From the NCBI GenBank assembly GCA_049515535.1, contig JBEKTZ010000004.1:201462-265461 (forward strand): 64,000 nucleotides of DNA, given 5' to 3'. The position numbers and the translations under genes were made by a program. This document shows positions 2,902 through 42,002 of this stretch, piece after piece (position 1 is the stretch's first letter; each line of letters begins with the position of its first letter). The notes under the pieces are model-generated. The model was not told where the DNA came from. It did no database searches and worked only from the letters and a program-made list of their open reading frames with translations. The DNA is from Candidatus Aminicenantales bacterium (GTDB lineage Bacteria > Acidobacteriota > Aminicenantia > Aminicenantales > UBA4085).

Positions 2902-3306
2902 ATGAAAAGGAAATCGAAACCAAAGGAAAGCCGGGCGACCTACCATATCAGCAGCGTTTCCCAGCGCTATGATATCCATCCCCAAACGCTGCGTCTCTAC
3001 GAACGGGAAGGTCTCCTTCGGCCGTCGCGCAGCGAGGGCAACACCCGTCTTTATACGGATGAGGATCTCAAGCAATTGGAACTGATCCTGACGCTTGTGA
3101 GGGATCTGGGCGTAAATCTGGCCGGTGTCGAGGTCGTTCTTCATATGCGGACGAAAATCGAACAGATCGAGGCCGGAGTCAATGAGATGCTGGAATTTCT
3201 CAAAAAAGAATATTTCTCAGGCGGGGAAAACGAGTTCGAGAGGAGACAAACCGACCTGATGCCTCTCTCCCAGACTCGGATCATGAAGATCGAAAGGAAA
3301 GATTGA
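2902..3306 (+). CDS. hspR: MerR-family heat-shock transcriptional repressor (HspR-like)
   Basis: N-terminal MerR helix-turn-helix (YHISSVSQRYDIHPQTLRLYEREGLLRPSRSEGNTRLYTDEDL). The gene sits immediately after dnaK-dnaJ with a 1-nt gap, as in canonical dnaK-dnaJ-hspR operons. Confidence 0.75.
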   Translation: MKRKSKPKESRATYHISSVSQRYDIHPQTLRLYEREGLLRPSRSEGNTRLYTDEDLKQLELILTLVRDLGVNLAGVEVVLHMRTKIEQIEAGVNEMLEFLKKEYFSGGENEFERRQTDLMPLSQTRIMKIERKD

Positions 3307-3371: not shown

Positions 3372-3596
3372 AGCATCAAACGCCAGATCCGGGATATTCA
3401 CGAGGCATTGGATGAAAAGGAAGTTTTTGTGTTAAAATGGCGGTTCGGATTGGATGACGATCAGCCCCTGACGCTCCGGGAGATCGGCGACAAGCTCCAC
3501 CTGACCAGGGAAGGCATCCGCCAGATCGAGCGGAAAGCGATGTACAAGCTGTCCCGGTCGAGAAAGCTTAGTCCATGGCGAGGAAATTTGAACTGA
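3372..3596 (+). CDS. Orphan ORF encoding only a sigma-70 region 4 (region 4.2 HTH) segment; possible sigma-factor remnant or small stand-alone region-4 protein
   Basis: The open frame SIKRQIRDIHEALDEKEVFVLKWRFGLDDDQPLTLREIGDKLHLTREGIRQIERKAMYKLSRS aligns to the RpoD C-terminus (VLxxRFGL...TLEEIGxxFxVTRERIRQIEAKALRKL). An in-frame stop lies at 3369-3371 and hspR ends at 3306. No sigma regions 1-3 can therefore be encoded upstream. The listed ORF uses a TTG start at 3408. Confidence 0.35.
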   Translation, partial: SIKRQIRDIHEALDEKEVFVLKWRFGLDDDQPLTLREIGDKLHLTREGIRQIERKAMYKLSRSRKLSPWRGNLN

Positions 3597-15338: not shown

Positions 15339-15396
15339 ACCCCCGGCCTTCATTGACTTCGCCTCGACTCCGGTTATAATATCCTACGGAACGATC

Positions 15397-16440
15397 ATGA
15401 AAAACCCCGGACTTCGAGACAAAGACAAGATCGTCCTGAAAGCGATCGTCGAGCATTATCTCAAGATCGGCAAACCTATCAGCTCGGGCTTCATTCATCA
15501 GAAAAGAGTTCTCTCCGATTCCCCCGCCAGCCTCAGGAACATCATGCTCAAGCTCGAGGAACTCGGTTTTCTTTCTCAGCCGCACGCTTCGGCCGGCCGG
15601 ATTCCGACGGATAAGGGCCTCCGTTTTTATGTCAACAGTCTCCTCGAGGAATCGCCGTTGTCGCTCGATCAAATGAGCCTTCTGACGAGCGATCTGTCCA
15701 TAAAGAAGGGGGACCTGAATTCGCTTCTTCATCGGATCTCGCTCCACCTGGCCGACCAGTCGGACAGCCTGGGTTTCGTCCTCTCGCCGCGCATCTCCAA
15801 GATCCATTTTCATCATCTCCGGTTCATCAAGATCGCCGAAAACAAGGTGATGATCATCCTTGTGACGTCGTTCAACGTCGTCCTGACGGAAATCGTTTCG
15901 ACGGAAACCTATTTCGACCAATCCGAGCTCGACCAGGCTTCGCAATACATCAACCAGAATTTTCACGGCAAGAACCTGCTGCTCGTCCGGGACCGCCTGC
16001 TCGGCGAGCTTCCCAAATATCAATCCAAGTTCGAGCAGGCGTTCAATAAGCTGATGTCCCTCATCAAGGACTCGATCGTTCAGGAAGACATGGAGAATCC
16101 CATCATCCTCCAGGGAACGGCCAGGCTCATCGATAAGTTCGAAACCTTCGACATGGCCAAAATGAAGTCGCTGTTCCAGAACTTCGAGGAAAAAGCCAAT
16201 CTGGCGAAGCTCCTTTCCGATTTCATATCCCTTGACCGGGTGAAAGTGCTCATCGGCTCCGAGTCCAACCTGCCGATCATTTCGGACTGTTCGCTCGTCC
16301 TCTCCCATTATGGAGACGAGAATCAGGTCATGGGCTCCCTGGGCATCATCGGGCCGAAGCGGATTCCCTATAAAAAGATCATTCCGCTCGTCGACAATGT
16401 CGCCAAAAGACTGAGCCGGACGATCAGCCAAAACCACTAG
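15397..16440 (+). CDS. hrcA: Heat-inducible transcription repressor HrcA
   Basis: Length and position directly upstream of grpE fit HrcA. N-terminal winged helix (KDKIVLKAIVEHYLKIGKPISSGFI). Start trimmed from the upstream-extended ORF to MKNPGLRDK. Confidence 0.75.
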   Translation: MKNPGLRDKDKIVLKAIVEHYLKIGKPISSGFIHQKRVLSDSPASLRNIMLKLEELGFLSQPHASAGRIPTDKGLRFYVNSLLEESPLSLDQMSLLTSDLSIKKGDLNSLLHRISLHLADQSDSLGFVLSPRISKIHFHHLRFIKIAENKVMIILVTSFNVVLTEIVSTETYFDQSELDQASQYINQNFHGKNLLLVRDRLLGELPKYQSKFEQAFNKLMSLIKDSIVQEDMENPIILQGTARLIDKFETFDMAKMKSLFQNFEEKANLAKLLSDFISLDRVKVLIGSESNLPIISDCSLVLSHYGDENQVMGSLGIIGPKRIPYKKIIPLVDNVAKRLSRTISQNH

Positions 16441-16457
16441 AGAAGGCGAAGGAACAC

Positions 16458-17153
16458 ATGGATATCGAAGACGAAAAAGAGCAGGAAGAAGATCCGGGGG
16501 AAGACACGGGACACCAGCCGGACGCGGATTCCGCCGGGGACGCCCCGGAAGACGAAAAAGAAAAGGGAACCGCGACGAAGAAGGCCGCGAGCGAAGAACA
16601 TGGCGGGCATGATCAACATGAAAAAGCGGATCATGAGGACGCTAAATCCTTGAAAGGAAAGCTCCGGAAGAAAGAGCATGAGATCAAAAACCACAAGGCG
16701 GAAATCGAGGAATTGAGAAAAGAGAAAGCCGAGATCAAAGATAAATTCCTCAGAGCGCTGGCCGAGATGGACAATCAGCGGAAGAGGCTCGAGCGGGAGA
16801 AGAGCGAGTTTTATCAGTTCGCTCTCAGCGATCTCCTCAAGGAAATATTGCTGGTTCTCGATAATTTCGAAAGAGCCCTGAAGAACAGGGATCAAACGGA
16901 TGACAAAAGCTTCCAAGAAGGCGTCGAGCTCATCTCTAAGCAGTTCCAAGATATGATCCGGAAACAAGGCCTGACTCCTGTCGGAGAGGAACATCAGAAA
17001 TTCGATCCCTCGGCCCACCATGCGGTCCTGACCGAAGAATCCGATCAAATCGATGAGCCGGAAATCGGCGAAGTGCTCCAGAAAGGCTACTTCCTCAACG
17101 ACCGGCTTCTCCGTCCCGCCCTGGTCAAAGTGATGGTTCCCAAAAAGAGCTAG
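16458..17153 (+). CDS. grpE: Nucleotide exchange factor GrpE
   Basis: Acidic N-terminus. Coiled-coil segment, then RALAEMDNQRKRLEREK...DLLKEILLVLDNFERAL and a C-terminal beta domain (GYFLNDRLLRPALVKV). Confidence 0.88.
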   Translation: MDIEDEKEQEEDPGEDTGHQPDADSAGDAPEDEKEKGTATKKAASEEHGGHDQHEKADHEDAKSLKGKLRKKEHEIKNHKAEIEELRKEKAEIKDKFLRALAEMDNQRKRLEREKSEFYQFALSDLLKEILLVLDNFERALKNRDQTDDKSFQEGVELISKQFQDMIRKQGLTPVGEEHQKFDPSAHHAVLTEESDQIDEPEIGEVLQKGYFLNDRLLRPALVKVMVPKKS

Positions 17154-17154
17154 A

Positions 17155-18723
17155 ATGGGCCCCATCATCGGCATCGATCTCGGCACGACGTATTCCTGCA
17201 TGGCCCACCTCGCGGGAGGGCAGCCGCGCGTCATTCCTAATCTGGAGGGGTCCACGACGACGCCGTCCATGGCGGCGTTCACGGCATCGGGGGATACCCT
17301 GATCGGGAGCATCGCCGCGAGACAGGCCGTCACGAATCCCGCAATGACGCTGTACGCCGTCAAGCGGCTGATCGGGAAAAAAGCGGGGTCTCCGGACGTC
17401 CAGAAAATCCGGAAGAGATTGCCGTACAAGCTGGCCGAAGCCCCGAACGGCGATGTCCTGATCGATATCGGGAACCGGATGATCACCCCCCAAGAGGTCT
17501 CGGCCTTGATCCTCGCCTACCTCAAGAGATGCGCCGAGTCCTATTTCGGCGAAGACATCATGGATGCGGTCATAACCGTCCCCGCGCATTTCGGCGATCA
17601 CCAAAGACAGGCGACCAAAGACGCCGCCGCCATCGCCGGGCTGAACGTCCTCCGTGTCATCAACGAGCCGACCGCCGCGAGCCTGGCCTTCGGCCTCGAC
17701 CAGAAGAAGAACGGCCGAGTGGCCGTCTTCGACATGGGCGGAGGGACGTTCGACATCACCCTGCTCGAGATCCATAACGGCGTGTTTCACATTCTTGCCA
17801 CGAACGGCGACTCCTTCCTTGGCGGCGAGGATTTCGACCAAAAAATCATCGACTGGTTCGTGGAAGAGGCGAAAAAAGAGCTTGGCATCGATCTCTCGGG
17901 CGACTTGTTCGCCCTGCAGAGAATCAAGGAGGCCGCGGAGCGGGCCAAGCGGGAGCTTTCGTTCACTCACGAAACCGAGATCAACCTGCCGTTCATCCAC
18001 GCCGCGCCGAGAGGTTCGGGTCATTTCCGCAAAGTGATATCGCGGTCCCTCCTTGAAAGCCTCACCGCGGATCTCGTCGAAAGGCCGTTTTCCCTGGTTG
18101 AACGGACTCTCGAAGAAAGCGGGCTCAAGCCGGGAGGGATCGACCACGTGATCCTCGTCGGAGGGCAGACGCGCATGCCGCTCGTCCGCGAGCGCGTTTC
18201 AAAATTCTTCAGGAAGAAAATTCACGAGCATGTCCATCCGGATGAAAGCGTCGCCCTGGGGGCGGCCATTCAATCCGGAATCCTGGAGGGAGAGCTGCGC
18301 GACCTTGTCCTGCTTCTGGACGTGACATCGTTCGCCCTCGGCATCGAGACCGAACGCGACGGCTACGAAAAAATCATCGAGAAGAACGCCACGATCCCCT
18401 TGAAGAAGGCCAAGGCCTTCACGACGGTCGAGAACAACCAGCGCCAAGTCAAAATCCATGTTTTGCAGGGCGACGGACCGCGCGCTTCGGACAGCGTGTC
18501 ATTGGCCAAGTTCGATCTCATCGGCCTTCTGCCGGCCCTGGCCGGAATCCCTCAAATCGACGTGACGTTCGAGATCGACGCGGACGGCCTGGTCAAGGTA
18601 TCGGCCAAGGATGCCTTGTCGGGCAAGGAGCAGAAGATCGTCGTCCGGCCCTCTTCGGGATTGAGCCGGCAGCAGATCAACAGCCTCCGGTTGAAGGCGC
18701 GGGATAAAGAGGCGAAGACGTAA
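17155..18723 (+). CDS. Hsp70-family chaperone paralog lacking the C-terminal alpha-helical lid (522 aa)
   Basis: Nucleotide-binding-domain motifs [24 protein letters not shown] and INEPTAAS, plus the interdomain linker LLLDVT and a beta-sandwich SBD. The protein ends ~25 aa after the SBD (...[23 protein letters not shown]), whereas the window's dnaK continues ~130 aa further. It sits in the dnaK position of an hrcA-grpE-X-dnaJ operon. Confidence 0.85.
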
Positions 18724-18727
18724 AGTC

Positions 18728-19858
18728 ATGGCCAAAAAAGATTATTATGAGGTGCTGGGGATTCCGCGGAGAGCCGCAGTCGACGACATAAAGAAAGCTT
18801 ACCGGCAAAAGGCATTGAAACACCATCCCGACCGCAACCCCGGGAATAAAGAAGCCGAGGAAATGTTCAAAGAAGCGGCCGAGGCGTATAGCGTCCTCGG
18901 CGATCCTCAAAAACGGTCCCTCTATGATCAGTACGGACCCGACGGACTCCGGGGCGAAGCGTTCTCGGGATTCAACGCGACGGTCTTCGAGGACTTCGAG
19001 GACATCCTCGGGAATATTTTCGGTTTTAATTTCGGCTTCGGGGATGTTTTCGGCTCCGGAACGAGACAGAGAGGCTCCTCGTCCCAACGCGGCCGGGATC
19101 TGGCTCTGGAGATAGAAATCACGCTCGAAGAGGCCGCGGCAGGCGTCGCCAAGGACATTTCCCTCCACCGGGCGGAGCCTTGTCCTTCGTGTCAGGGAAC
19201 GAAGTTGCGGCCGGGAACAAAGAAATCGATCTGTTCTTCATGCGGCGGCCGCGGGCAGATCCGCCATCATCAGGGTTTCTTCACGTTGGCAAGGACCTGT
19301 CCGCAATGCGGAGGGAGCGGAGACATCATCGCCACGCCTTGCGATGAATGCCGCGGGACTGGCCACATGCGGCAAAAAAAAGCGCTGAATGTCCGAATTC
19401 CGGCGGGTATCGATAACGGATCCCGGCTCCGTATCCAGGGGGAGGGGGAAGCCGGGGACGGGGAGGGGAGAAGGGGAGATCTTTACATCGCCATCAAGGT
19501 CATGACGCACGATTTCTTCGTGCGTGAGCAGAATCATCTGTATTGCGAAATCTCGATCGCGTTTGTCCAAGCCGCGCTTGGCGTAACCATCGAAGTTCCC
19601 ACGCTCGAAGGCGCCGAGAAGCTCAAGATTCCCCCCGGCACGCAATCCGGCGAGGTTTTCCGGTTAAAGGGCCGGGGGATCAAAGACCTGGAGAGCCGAA
19701 GGCTCGGCGACTTGCTCGTCAAGATTCAAGTGAAAACCCCGGAAGACCTGTCCAAGGAACAAAAGGGCGTGTTGCGCCAGCTGGCCGAGTTGCGCGCTGA
19801 AAATCTGGATTTCATCGACCGGGAGACCGTGATGAAAGAAAGACGTCGCGTCCATTAG
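18728..19858 (+). CDS. dnaJ: Co-chaperone DnaJ (second copy)
   Basis: J domain DYYEVLGI...HHPDRNP, a G/F region and four CxxCxGxG zinc-finger repeats. It starts 5 nt after the Hsp70 paralog. Confidence 0.9.
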
Positions 19859-20011
19859 AGCCGCCTTTGATATCGAACCATTTTTGCGTCGACAACAAAA
19901 GGGCCGAAGGATGGAAAGCGGTTTCCCGCGGCGGTTGTAAGTCCGTCGGCGCGGGCGACACGATCGCAAAGGCGGAAATGGCGGCCCCGGTTTCGGGGTC
20001 GATTCTCCCGC

Positions 20012-40402: not shown

Positions 40403-41209
40403 TTATTGGTGCTGTTTGAGCTTAGAAATCAAATCTTCGAGGATACGGATGATTTCCTGCCTGTTGACCGATTCCTTTTTGAATTCAATGCGAAGGCTGA
40501 AAGATCGATCTTCCTTCGGACTATAATTAAAAACATAAGATTTCTGTTTCTTCTTGTCTGCGTCCTTACTTTTCAGGAGTTTGGTCAAGTCGCGGGTGTC
40601 CTCTCTTTTTAAACCTCGCTCTTTTATATTGTCGAGGAGCGATGTCATTTCGTTCTCATTCTTGAGTTTGGAAATCTCGATCAAAATGCTTCGATTTTTA
40701 TCTAATGAATGGGTTTGGCAAAGACGGCGTATCGAAGCGGGTATCTTGCTGATGTTGATGATTTCCGTAATGGTGGATCGCGCTTTGCCGATTTTCTCGG
40801 AAATTTGGCTATGGCTATAACCATAGGTATCCATTAAAGCCTTTAACCCGTCCGCTTCTTCGAAGATGTCAAGGTCTTTGCGCTGAAGATTCTCTATCAG
40901 CGAGATTTCCATGGCCTCGTTATCAGTCGCGTTCATTTCAATACAGGGTATGTCCTTGAGGGCCGCGTTTTTGGATGCCACATAGCGGCGTTCTCCGGCG
41001 ATGATCTCGTATTTATCGCCCTTGGGACGGACGATGATCGGCTCCAGAACCCCCTTGGCTTTGATCGACGTCACCAACTCTTCGATATTTCCTAGCTCGC
41101 TGCGCGCTTGGCGGGGGTTAGGCTCAATGCGATCCAACGCAATGAGGCGTAACAGCGGAGCGCTGGCTTTTTTGGAAATGAACTCGACGAAATGCGTGTC
41201 ATGCCGCAT
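40403..41209 (-). CDS. parB: ParB/Spo0J-family partition protein with divergent C-terminal region
   Basis: ParB N-terminal box (LEPIIVRPKGDKYEIIAGERRYVAS, GxRR motif) and an HTH (SHSQISEKIGKARSTITEII). The C-terminal ~110 aa are Lys/Glu-rich and not recognisably Spo0J-like. Start trimmed to MRHDTHF just after the parA stop. Confidence 0.75.
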   Translation of the reverse strand: MRHDTHFVEFISKKASAPLLRLIALDRIEPNPRQARSELGNIEELVTSIKAKGVLEPIIVRPKGDKYEIIAGERRYVASKNAALKDIPCIEMNATDNEAMEISLIENLQRKDLDIFEEADGLKALMDTYGYSHSQISEKIGKARSTITEIINISKIPASIRRLCQTHSLDKNRSILIEISKLKNENEMTSLLDNIKERGLKREDTRDLTKLLKSKDADKKKQKSYVFNYSPKEDRSFSLRIEFKKESVNRQEIIRILEDLISKLKQHQ

Positions 41210-41237
41210 TCCGATGGTGTCCGGAAGTCCTGATCGT

Positions 41238-42002
41238 TTAGTTTTTTGCACGGTCCAAAATCTCCTCGGCCACTTTTTTGTATTGGAGAGAGCCGATCGA
41301 AGCGGCCGCATAAGTGAAGATCGATTCCTTATAAGCCGGGCTTTCTTCAAGCTTGACGCTCTTAGAGATATGGGTATGAAAGACTTTTTCGCCGAAGACG
41401 CGTTGAATGCGCTCGACCACGTCTCTAGCGATATTTGTCCGGGTATCATGCAAAGTGATCAAAACCCCGAGGATTTGGAGTCCGGGATTCGCTACTCGTC
41501 TCACCTTCTCGATCGTCTCGAGAAGATCATCCGTCCCCTCGAGACTGAGGAACGATGATTGAATAGGAATCAGGAGATGTGATGCCGCCACCAAGGCATT
41601 CAAGGTAATCAAGCCGAGCGTCGGCGGCGTATCGATGAAGATGAAATCATAGCGTTCGCGGATCGGCTCGATGATGTCTTTCAAACGAAAATGCCCGTCA
41701 ATCTGACCCAGCAAAGACGCTTCAAGTTTGGCCATGGATGTCCTGGCGATGGCGACATCCAAACCTGGGACAGTGGATTTCATGATCACGCTTTGGATTT
41801 TCATTTCAGGACGCATGAGAACATCATAAAGAGACATTTCGCTGCGATCAGGATCTTTGACGCAGAACTTTGTGCTATGGCCCTGAGAATCGGTATCGAC
41901 AAGGAGAATGCGGCAGCCGCTGAGCGCTAAAGCGGCCGATACATTGACGGCTGTCGTGGTCTTGCCGACTCCCCCTTTCTGATTGGTTATGGCGACGATC
42001 AC
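41238..42002 (-). CDS. parA: ParA/Soj-family partition ATPase
   Basis: Deviant Walker A NQKGGVGKTTTAVNVSAALA, Walker A' LLVDTDSQ and Walker B FIFIDTPP. Confidence 0.88.
   Translation of the reverse strand: MIVAITNQKGGVGKTTTAVNVSAALALSGCRILLVDTDSQGHSTKFCVKDPDRSEMSLYDVLMRPEMKIQSVIMKSTVPGLDVAIARTSMAKLEASLLGQIDGHFRLKDIIEPIRERYDFIFIDTPPTLGLITLNALVAASHLLIPIQSSFLSLEGTDDLLETIEKVRRVANPGLQILGVLITLHDTRTNIARDVVERIQRVFGEKVFHTHISKSVKLEESPAYKESIFTYAAASIGSLQYKKVAEEILDRAKN

Follow-up and report, generated by a model that had tools for sequence, protein, structure and literature searches.

We analysed a 64,000-nucleotide stretch of contig JBEKTZ010000004.1 from a Candidatus Aminicenantales bacterium (the window), and found that the dnaK position of a four-gene operon, hrcA-grpE-hsp70-dnaJ (15397–19858, + strand), is occupied by a gene for an Hsp70 of 522 residues. 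In its predicted structure the protein is lidless yet not cut flush with the β-domain, helix A being retained. We consider it likely that this is a naturally lidless, DnaK-derived Hsp70, the fixed product of an ancestral hrcA-grpE-dnaK-dnaJ operon in the class Aminicenantia (Acidobacteriota), which would work as an open-groove, fast-exchange chaperone beside a canonical DnaK. Lid loss as such is known and recurrent; we found no earlier description of the short family or of a lidless Hsp70 in the hrcA-grpE-dnaK-dnaJ slot, and the family comes with an intermediate form and an apparently co-evolving partner.

Architecture of the short Hsp70

The gene is whole (17155–18723, +), and was assigned by profile searches, alignment, AlphaFold2 and Foldseek. 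The protein matches the Pfam HSP70 model over positions 1–518 of 599 (E = 5e-191) and the NCBIfam DnaK model PRK00290 over positions 1–515 of 625. Against the curated DnaK thresholds, it scores 702.1 for NF001413/PRK00290 (cut-off 648) and 681.5 for TIGR02350 prok_dnaK (cut-off 822.55). A phmmer search against PDB sequences aligned residues 1–519 with residues 1–520 of E. coli DnaK, at about 52–56% identity over 520 residues, with the lid region unmatched.

The AlphaFold2 model, based on 66 family members, has a predicted local distance difference test (pLDDT) score of 89.4 and a predicted template modelling (pTM) score of 0.88, with confident β-strands. It comprises the ATPase domain, a linker strand, the β-sandwich and then one terminal helix (residues 505–521), with nothing more. 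The nucleotide-binding domain (NBD) spans approximately residues 1–381 (17155–18297, +), and is followed by the interdomain linker VLLLD (residues 385–389; 18307–18321, +), the substrate-binding β-sandwich (approximately residues 392–503; 18328–18663, +) and a C-terminal helix-A stub (residues 505–521; 18667–18717, +), while lid helices B–E and the disordered tail are absent. Using Foldseek, the model falls on structures of DnaK in the ATP state, and the top match is a laboratory-truncated DnaK (PDB ID: 7KZU), with a TM-score of 0.97 for the query (TMq) and 0.95 for the target (TMt) and a root mean square deviation of 1.6 Å. Against near-full-length DnaK (PDB IDs: 4B9Q and 5NRO) the match takes in the whole query (TMq 0.94), and TMt falls to 0.81–0.82 because the lid of the target has no counterpart in the model.

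An earlier account of the window, made from its letters alone (the sequence-only reading), had described an Hsp70 that stops about 25 residues past the β-sandwich, without an α-helical lid or a C-terminal tail, and had proposed alignment to E. coli DnaK and structure prediction as checks. Both agree on the absence of helices B–E and the tail. The protein does stop where described, but only 19 residues follow the SSGL motif that closes the β-sandwich, and helix A is retained; the C-terminus (…KEAKT, residue 522) lies inside this helix. The interdomain linker, reported earlier as kept, is present as DLVLLLDVT at residues 383–391.

Residues kept and residues changed

We aligned 158 sequences of the short family with 38 canonical DnaKs of other phyla, the full-length DnaK of the window and residues 1–520 of E. 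coli DnaK, whose numbering is used for the residue positions that follow. The catalytic residues D8, K70, E171, D194, T199 and D201 are present in all 158 short-family sequences and also in the window protein. Among the NBD residues that receive the signal from the J-domain and linker, R167 and N170 are likewise invariant and T173 is conserved in 99–100%, all three being intact in the window protein; D148 is conserved in 92% of the family. Linker residues L391, L392 and D393 are conserved in 99–100%. In the β-domain, P419, F426, Q433 and V436 occur in every one of the 158 sequences and N415 in 99–100%, with K414/N415 kept, while I438 of the pocket is I, V or L and D481 is D or N, as in canonical DnaKs. 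The window protein keeps F426, V436 and I438.

Other positions have changed throughout the family. R445, which we take to be the partner of D526 in helix A of DnaK, is arginine in all 38 canonical sequences and S, G, N or E in the short family (G in the window protein). The α-helical lid of DnaK, approximately 100 residues long, is latched by the pairs R467–D540 and D431–H544, and the arch over the groove is formed by M404 and A429 (PMC8215388). R467 has become alanine in 97% of the short family, the window protein included, and D431 has become H or N in 77% (N in the window protein); both are invariant in the 38 canonical DnaKs. The arch is E404/V429 in the window protein, with glutamate at position 404 in 99% of the short family (L/M in 82% of the canonical set) and valine at position 429 in 100% (A in 95% of the canonical set).

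The class-specific changes in the NBD are Y145H, K55A/L and E217H. In DnaK, two salt bridges across the nucleotide cleft, K55–E267 and R56–E264, slow the release of nucleotide (PMC8215388) and make the protein depend on GrpE; K55 is A in the window protein and L or M in 89% of the short family, with R56, E264 and E267 conserved and grpE lying immediately upstream of the gene. Y145 is H in 91% of the family (Y in 100% of canonical sequences), a substitution with nearly wild-type behaviour in E. coli DnaK (PMC4595643). E217 is replaced by H, N or Q in 99% (E in 92% of canonical sequences), and D477 by E.

The pattern of kept and changed residues indicates that the ATPase engine and allosteric wiring are under strong purifying selection, that the lid-holding surface has decayed, and that the mouth of the groove has been remodelled. 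Judged by these residues, it is the signature of an old and functional lid loss, and not of a broken gene.

Conservation of the short family

The identical short protein is found on 13 contigs from four data sources. The best 120 protein clusters (90% clustering) are all 513–536 residues long and 62–75% identical to the short Hsp70, and with 50% clustering the entire short family falls to one representative (P0121, 530 residues). The tail after SSGL measures 10–33 residues (median 23, across 153 distinct sequences), as against 99–143 residues in lid-bearing relatives.

Short forms are encoded at 37 loci in GTDB species-representative genomes, essentially all of them Aminicenantes, Aminicenantia or Saccharicenans. 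Thirty-five of these open reading frames (ORFs) are complete, at 519–536 residues, and two are cut by contig ends; the order hrcA-grpE-short hsp70-dnaJ is seen wherever the contig permits. Whether related genomes share the arrangement had been posed as a check, and they do, with this order in the 37 species-level genomes and both operons on the same contig in two relatives. Shared by the best 120 clusters and these 37 genomes, the short form is well past anything chance would give. Databases name the short protein simply DnaK ('molecular chaperone DnaK'), and under such plain annotation counts of 'dnaK duplicates' hide an architecturally distinct subfamily.

A -[GR]LL C-terminal motif (TRLL, KGLL, NRLL, KRLL and others) is present in 27 of the 153 distinct short Hsp70s (e.g. 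P0004, P0010, P0014 and P0121) and could be a short docking motif. The short Hsp70 of the window does not carry it.

Descent and stepwise loss of the lid

Lid-bearing relatives occupy the same operon slot in other genomes. In L036 (Aminicenantes, isolate CS4-C018), the hrcA-grpE-hsp70-dnaJ slot holds a 612-residue protein with a recognisable lid (…EAEKYEHADRKK…), which already has E404, V429, A467 and H431 and retains R445. Four other Acidobacteriota (L059, L066, L069 and L072) and another Aminicenantes metagenome-assembled genome (L079) encode 601-residue proteins in this slot; here, the lid is present but a long tail is not, residue 429 is V, and positions 404 and 467 each hold R or K. That L036 carries a lid together with R467A and D431H suggests that the lid was lost stepwise, and the Hsp70 of the hrcA operon probably changed in the order arch, latch, lid.

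A neighbour-joining tree was built on 502 columns of the NBD and the β-sandwich with 100 bootstraps. The short family and L036 group together at 100%, and all acidobacterial hrcA-operon Hsp70s group at 98%. The full-length, HspR-linked DnaKs of Aminicenantes form a separate clade (100%) among the canonical DnaKs of other phyla.

The sequence-only reading had called the hrcA-headed operon the second of the window. A separate operon it is, but the label does not suit it: the gene order is that of the Bacillus dnaK operon, rsmE follows dnaJ there as it does in relatives, and with the 98% grouping this means that the lineage probably inherited hrcA-grpE-hsp70-dnaJ as its primary dnaK locus. By the same tree, the dnaK-dnaJ-hspR operon would be a lineage of its own, which may be an old paralogue or may have been acquired laterally. 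The claim that the short Hsp70 is no mere duplicate holds, as it is a long-diverged paralogue that shares 50% identity with the full-length DnaK of the window, and the two DnaJs are 41% identical. We put forward only tentatively the fuller scenario, in which canonical DnaK function passed to dnaK-dnaJ-hspR, a second operon that may have come in by lateral transfer and uses the GrpE of the first, leaving behind an open-groove, charged-arch Hsp70 with a privately co-evolved DnaJ.

A possible cognate DnaJ

On DnaK, the J-domain is positioned by R22, K26, R27, K48 and K51, which face the acidic residues E206, D211, E217 and D477 (PMC8215388). In the hrcA-operon DnaJ of the window, J-domain position 27 is Q, where K or R is usual. 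Of the DnaJs encoded next to short Hsp70s (n = 36), 72% have Q at position 27 and 25% have K/R; of those next to canonical DnaKs (n = 29), 93% have K/R there. Positions 22, 26 and 48 are basic in both groups. A non-acidic residue 217 in the Hsp70 is paired with a non-basic residue 27 in the DnaJ in 25 of 35 short operons; of 33 other operons, 28 combine E217 with K/R27. This covariation suggests that the short Hsp70 and its own DnaJ may be a privately tuned pair.

Two Hsp70 systems side by side

Both operons lie on one contig in two further genomes (Ga0373628_0000005, 521,620 bp, and contig_54909, 701,075 bp), 26–29 kb apart and in conserved synteny, and two more pairs, matched by the lengths of their longest contigs (254,134 and 320,747 bp), suggest the same two-operon arrangement. 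Between the same pairs of genomes, the full-length DnaK is 84–86% identical and the short Hsp70 66–68%, so that the short form evolves at approximately double the rate of the canonical DnaK beside it. Its divergence is similar to that of ordinary neighbours (Memo, saccharopine dehydrogenase and DnaJ). Across 120 clusters, full-length DnaK is 81–96% identical.

The operon had been credited with a dedicated GrpE and J-protein. Both genes are indeed adjacent to the short hsp70, but dedication of the GrpE does not follow: this is the sole grpE found in approximately 74 kb here (the 64-kb window and 10 kb upstream), with no second grpE and no further Hsp70 or DnaJ copies in the window, and full-length dnaK has no grpE beside it, whether in the source genome or in the two relatives covered (approximately 14 kb around each gene). 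The GrpE of the hrcA operon may serve both Hsp70s. The earlier description of a specialised module is borne out in part, by residues particular to its class, both in the substrate arch and where the J-domain makes contact, and by the adjacent GrpE and DnaJ genes.

Proposed mechanism

Given the conserved residues, the short Hsp70 would run a normal ATP/ADP cycle, with hydrolysis triggered by the J-domain and exchange driven by GrpE. Engineered lidless DnaK retains ATP control, as stated in passages of PMC7968864 and PMC8215388. Without a lid to trap the client, on- and off-rates for peptide in the ADP state would be higher and affinity lower, as in engineered lidless DnaK, for which the account of Buczynski 2001 quoted in PMC7968864 gives a dissociation constant 5.66-fold higher for a lidless construct, and raised on- and off-rates upon lid deletion. 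The uncovered groove could take bulky, partly folded or aggregated clients, and the stabilisation of folded clients by the lid, as described for DnaK (PMC8215388), would be absent. The acidic arch (E404) may shift sequence preference. The cognate partner would be the operon's own DnaJ, with a J-domain that has lost the basic residue 27 facing an Hsp70 that has lost the acidic E217, while GrpE may also serve the canonical DnaK. Full-length DnaK would then provide general, lid-dependent holding and folding, with the lidless Hsp70 as a specialised fast-exchange partner.

Alternative explanations

That the protein is an artefact or pseudogene, with a frameshift or recent deletion truncating an ordinary dnaK in one genome, is hardly credible. 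The short length itself and the TIGR02350 score below its cut-off (681.5 against 822.55) would fit such an event, but the ATG of dnaJ begins 4 nt past the TAA stop of hsp70, and there is therefore no space for lid-coding DNA and no frameshift scenario, so we rejected this candidate. The identical protein on 13 contigs from four sources, the end point shared by the best 120 clusters and by 35 complete ORFs of other species, the invariance of the active-site residues in 158 sequences, and the lid-contact residues that have co-evolved away all point the same way; the sequencing frameshift once raised against the gene thus fails on its spacing to dnaJ and its conserved length. An ordinary HscA or HscC of normal family architecture, also raised at that time, is very improbable. 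The lids of HscA and HscC are shortened (PMC13580251), and the K55–E267 salt bridge of the cleft is lost here as it is in HscA. However, the top NCBIfam match is DnaK at 702 bits, whereas the HscA models score under their cut-offs (TIGR01991, 517.3 against 708.55; NF003520, 516 against 620), and identity to E. coli DnaK is about 52–56% over 520 residues. The adjacent genes encode GrpE and a class-A DnaJ, and not HscB, whereas HscA and HscC work without GrpE (PMC8215388); R56 and E264 are kept, residue 436 is V and not Met, and in the tree the protein clusters with hrcA-operon DnaKs.

Two further possibilities concern what the protein does. It might be no stand-alone chaperone but a co-chaperone of full-length DnaK, like Hsp110 or Ssz1, pairing via the ATPase domains and boosting nucleotide exchange or disaggregation. 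Such a role has been proposed generally for those DnaK paralogues of bacteria that have a shortened lid or none (PMC13580251), and would suit two Hsp70s that always co-occur, 12–29 kb apart in conserved synteny, the approximately twofold faster evolution of the short form, and a full-length operon without its own grpE. We regard it as quite unlikely for a protein that, unlike the Hsp110 type, keeps R167, N170, T173, D148, K414/N415, P419 and D481 along with the tested catalytic residues, has an intact hydrophobic pocket and linker, and is translationally packed with its own GrpE and a DnaJ that co-varies with it; the two roles are, moreover, compatible and not mutually exclusive. The roles of the two Hsp70s might also be reversed, with the lidless form as the constitutive, main housekeeping Hsp70 and full-length DnaK under HspR as a stress-only addition. 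The ancestral primary arrangement of the hrcA operon, its near-consensus sigma-70 promoter without a CIRCE element, its possession of the only GrpE found, and the HspR-like autorepressor gene in the full-length operon would all accord with this. Still, this reversal seems unlikely to us, because full-length DnaK, at 84–96% identity across the class, is conserved far more strongly than any other protein of the region, as expected of a central hub, whereas the short form drifts like average proteins; engineered lidless or tail-less DnaKs complement poorly (PMC8215388), and no HAIR element was found in the searches described below either.

Our preferred reading, of a working lidless chaperone fixed in an ancestral operon, has several points against it. 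The arguments on ATPase activity, dependence on J-protein and GrpE, kinetics and clients come from conserved residues and from mutants engineered in E. coli DnaK. The short-only clade has a bootstrap of 34%, so that L036 could be basal to it or nested within it, which leaves a single lid loss and several losses both possible, and long-branch attraction among the fast-evolving hrcA-operon Hsp70s could inflate their 98% grouping in a distance tree. The covariation of J27 with residue 217 is imperfect (25/35) and drawn from phylogenetically non-independent sequences, and lid-bearing L036 pairs N217 with K27. Finally, with no CIRCE found, the hrcA operon could be induced by heat or expressed constitutively, and either Hsp70 could be the stress form.

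Regulation of the two operons

The sequence-only reading had placed the two operons under different repressors. HrcA and HspR-like genes do lie adjacent to their respective operons, but the operators are another matter, as neither a CIRCE nor a credible HAIR was found in the window or upstream of full-length dnaK. We searched for the controlling inverted repeat of chaperone expression (CIRCE) as TTAGCACTC-N9-GAGTGCTAA and for the HspR-associated inverted repeat (HAIR) as CTTGAGT-N7-ACTCAAG. There is no CIRCE anywhere in the 64-kb window with up to 4 mismatches allowed. The same scan returned elements with 0–2 mismatches at 34–102 nt upstream of hrcA in 16 outgroup loci, including those of Geobacter and Herpetosiphon; since perfect CIRCE elements were recovered there, the scan itself works. 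Aminicenantes hrcA loci hold at best CIRCE remnants with 4 mismatches, in four cases, and a search of the gap upstream of hrcA for inverted repeats found none. For HAIR, the window gave one match with 3 mismatches, at 40661 inside parB and at chance level. Upstream of full-length dnaK no credible HAIR was found, the only resemblance being CTTGACA-N7-ACTAAG; this was rejected as an operator, as it overlaps the −35 element and two relatives do not share its right half. Two repressors with two regulons are thus plausible from gene content, with negative operator searches.

In the 58-nt gap between a Memo-like gene and hrcA, the window has a sigma-70-type promoter-like site (TTGACT-16-TATAAT; 15353–15380, +; 11/12 matches). 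Most Aminicenantes hrcA operons share TTGACA-N~17-TTAATGCTATAAA, a promoter with an extended −10 element that looks like half of a CIRCE arm; in the window and in its closest relative, the plain form TTGAC(T/A)-N-TATAAT stands in its place.

In one Aminicenantes subclade (L003, L007, L011–L014, L020 and L037), a CTGACT-N2/3-CAGTCA palindrome abutting the −35 element is conserved, located 15–30 nt upstream of the −35 of the hrcA promoter; it does not occur in the window. This palindrome and TTGACA-N~17-TTAATGCTATAAA could be lineage-specific operators that replace CIRCE. For full-length dnaK, a very AT-rich leader of 127 nt lies upstream of the gene, outside the window (L081, 7890–8016), and across three genomes the leader has two conserved elements, a TTGACA...TATAtT promoter and, immediately ahead of the AGGAGG ribosome-binding site, a TACTAAA box.

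Relation to known Hsp70s

With canonical DnaK, both that of E. coli and the 643-residue protein of the source contig, the short Hsp70 shares the catalytic and allosteric residues, the VLLLD linker, the F426/V436/I438 pocket, and the gene order of the classic primary operon, in which hrcA comes ahead of the genes for GrpE and a class-A DnaJ. It differs in having neither helices B–E nor the tail of approximately 30 residues, in the E404/V429 arch, in the lost R467/D431 latch and R445 hinge partners, and in K55, Y145H and E217H/N/Q. Engineered lid-truncated Hsp70s include DnaK(2–517), DnaK 7KZU and 7KRU, BiP 7A4U, M. genitalium DnaK without the α-helical substrate-binding subdomain (5OBU) and mortalin 9BLU. 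The end point of the DnaK constructs is near-identical, as the short Hsp70 ends at approximately E. coli residue 520–523; however, the constructs keep a wild-type β-domain, whereas the short family is natural, ancient and class-wide, with an adapted β-domain and a DnaJ that co-varies.

The 'DnaK derivates' of Myxococcus xanthus and Anaeromyxobacter (PMC13580251) are likewise paralogues beside a bona fide DnaK with the lid partly or wholly missing; none of those in that review is described in an hrcA-grpE-dnaK-dnaJ slot with its own GrpE and DnaJ. Four other clusters of approximately 530-residue Hsp70s (P0155, P0208, P0217 and P0270) end 20–35 residues past the β-domain; at only 42–48% identity to the short Hsp70, they fall into 50% clusters of their own, and in P0155 both the GG loop and the counterpart of R467 are still present. 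As far as these sequences indicate, bacteria have probably lost the lid on several occasions. HscA and HscC are also specialised bacterial Hsp70s with reduced lid-latch contacts, an altered arch and shortened lids or tails, but their lid is still present, they do not use GrpE, they lack both cleft salt bridges, and their dedicated J-proteins are not class A. Eukaryotic HSPA14/Ssz1 and HSPA12A/B are natural lidless relatives, distant in sequence and with no sign of common origin; Ssz1 works within the ribosome-associated complex and is no chaperone cycled by a J-protein and nucleotide exchange factor. Our literature searches found no natural lidless DnaK described in an hrcA operon or in Aminicenantes, and no description of any Aminicenantes DnaK, returning only general statements on lid-shortened Myxococcus DnaK paralogues and engineered constructs.

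The role of the Hsp70 lid, in client trapping, contact with folded clients or allosteric tuning, has been debated for 25 years through engineered truncations. The short family offers a natural counterpart of the laboratory lidless mutant, class-wide under purifying selection, with a co-chaperone set, an adapted β-domain and a lid-bearing intermediate. Its two Hsp70s, two DnaJs and one GrpE are a testable set for what is gained by lid removal and for the specificity code of J-proteins. If our reading is correct, this would be a natural bacterial division of labour between two Hsp70s, with a lid-dependent holder and folder on one side and, on the other, a fast binder that has no lid and takes bulky or aggregated clients, and the 601-residue, 612-residue and approximately 525-residue forms would be an evolutionary series for probing the purpose of the lid.

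Gene layout and neighbouring features

The gene and domain calls agree with the earlier account of two chaperone operons, the first with full-length DnaK, DnaJ and a MerR/HspR-type repressor. The four genes of the hrcA operon are tightly packed on one strand, with intergenic gaps of 17, 1 and 4 nt. The hrcA gene (15397–16440, +; 347 residues) encodes an intact HrcA-family repressor (TIGR00331, 276.6 bits against a cut-off of 197.2), close in length to the HrcA of relatives (348–349 residues); an alternative ORF from 15295 overlaps the upstream gene and shows no homology before residue 35. The grpE gene (16458–17153, +; 231 residues) encodes an acidic, His-rich N-terminal extension and stops 1 nt before the start of hsp70. 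The class-A dnaJ (18728–19858, +; 376 residues) encodes a J-domain with HPD, a G/F region, a zinc finger and C-terminal domains. In relatives, rsmE (16S rRNA U1498 methyltransferase) directly follows this dnaJ (L086, 8725–9495; L088, 8713–9453). The window has no rsmE after dnaJ (19859–20011), and a Ser/Thr protein kinase gene lies approximately 150 nt downstream instead.

In the other operon, full-length dnaK (2–1726, +) is cut at its 5′ end by the window edge, with 574 residues inside the window and 643 on the source contig, and has a lid and an acidic tail. It is followed by a class-A dnaJ (1779–2900, +; 373 residues, from a profile search) and a MerR-family, HspR-like repressor gene (2902–3306, +; 134 residues), the last gene of the operon and in the position expected for HspR, although its score of 93 bits against the HspR model NF047375 is below the cut-off of 105. 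Directly after it lies a 62-residue remnant of a sigma-70-family protein (region 4; 3408–3596, +). Two relatives have a complete RpoD/RpoS-like sigma factor of 279–280 residues at that site (L085, 9498–10340; L087, 9590–10429), and a gene for a DnaC/IstB-like ATPase follows both the sigma gene in relatives and the remnant in the window, so the sigma gene appears to be 5′-truncated in the source genome.

The lowest GC content of the window (0.455, against approximately 0.55) is at 40403–42002 on the − strand, which holds parB (40403–41449) and parA (41238–42002). The true start of parB is probably further downstream, since the two ORFs as listed overlap, and this stretch may lie near the replication origin region.

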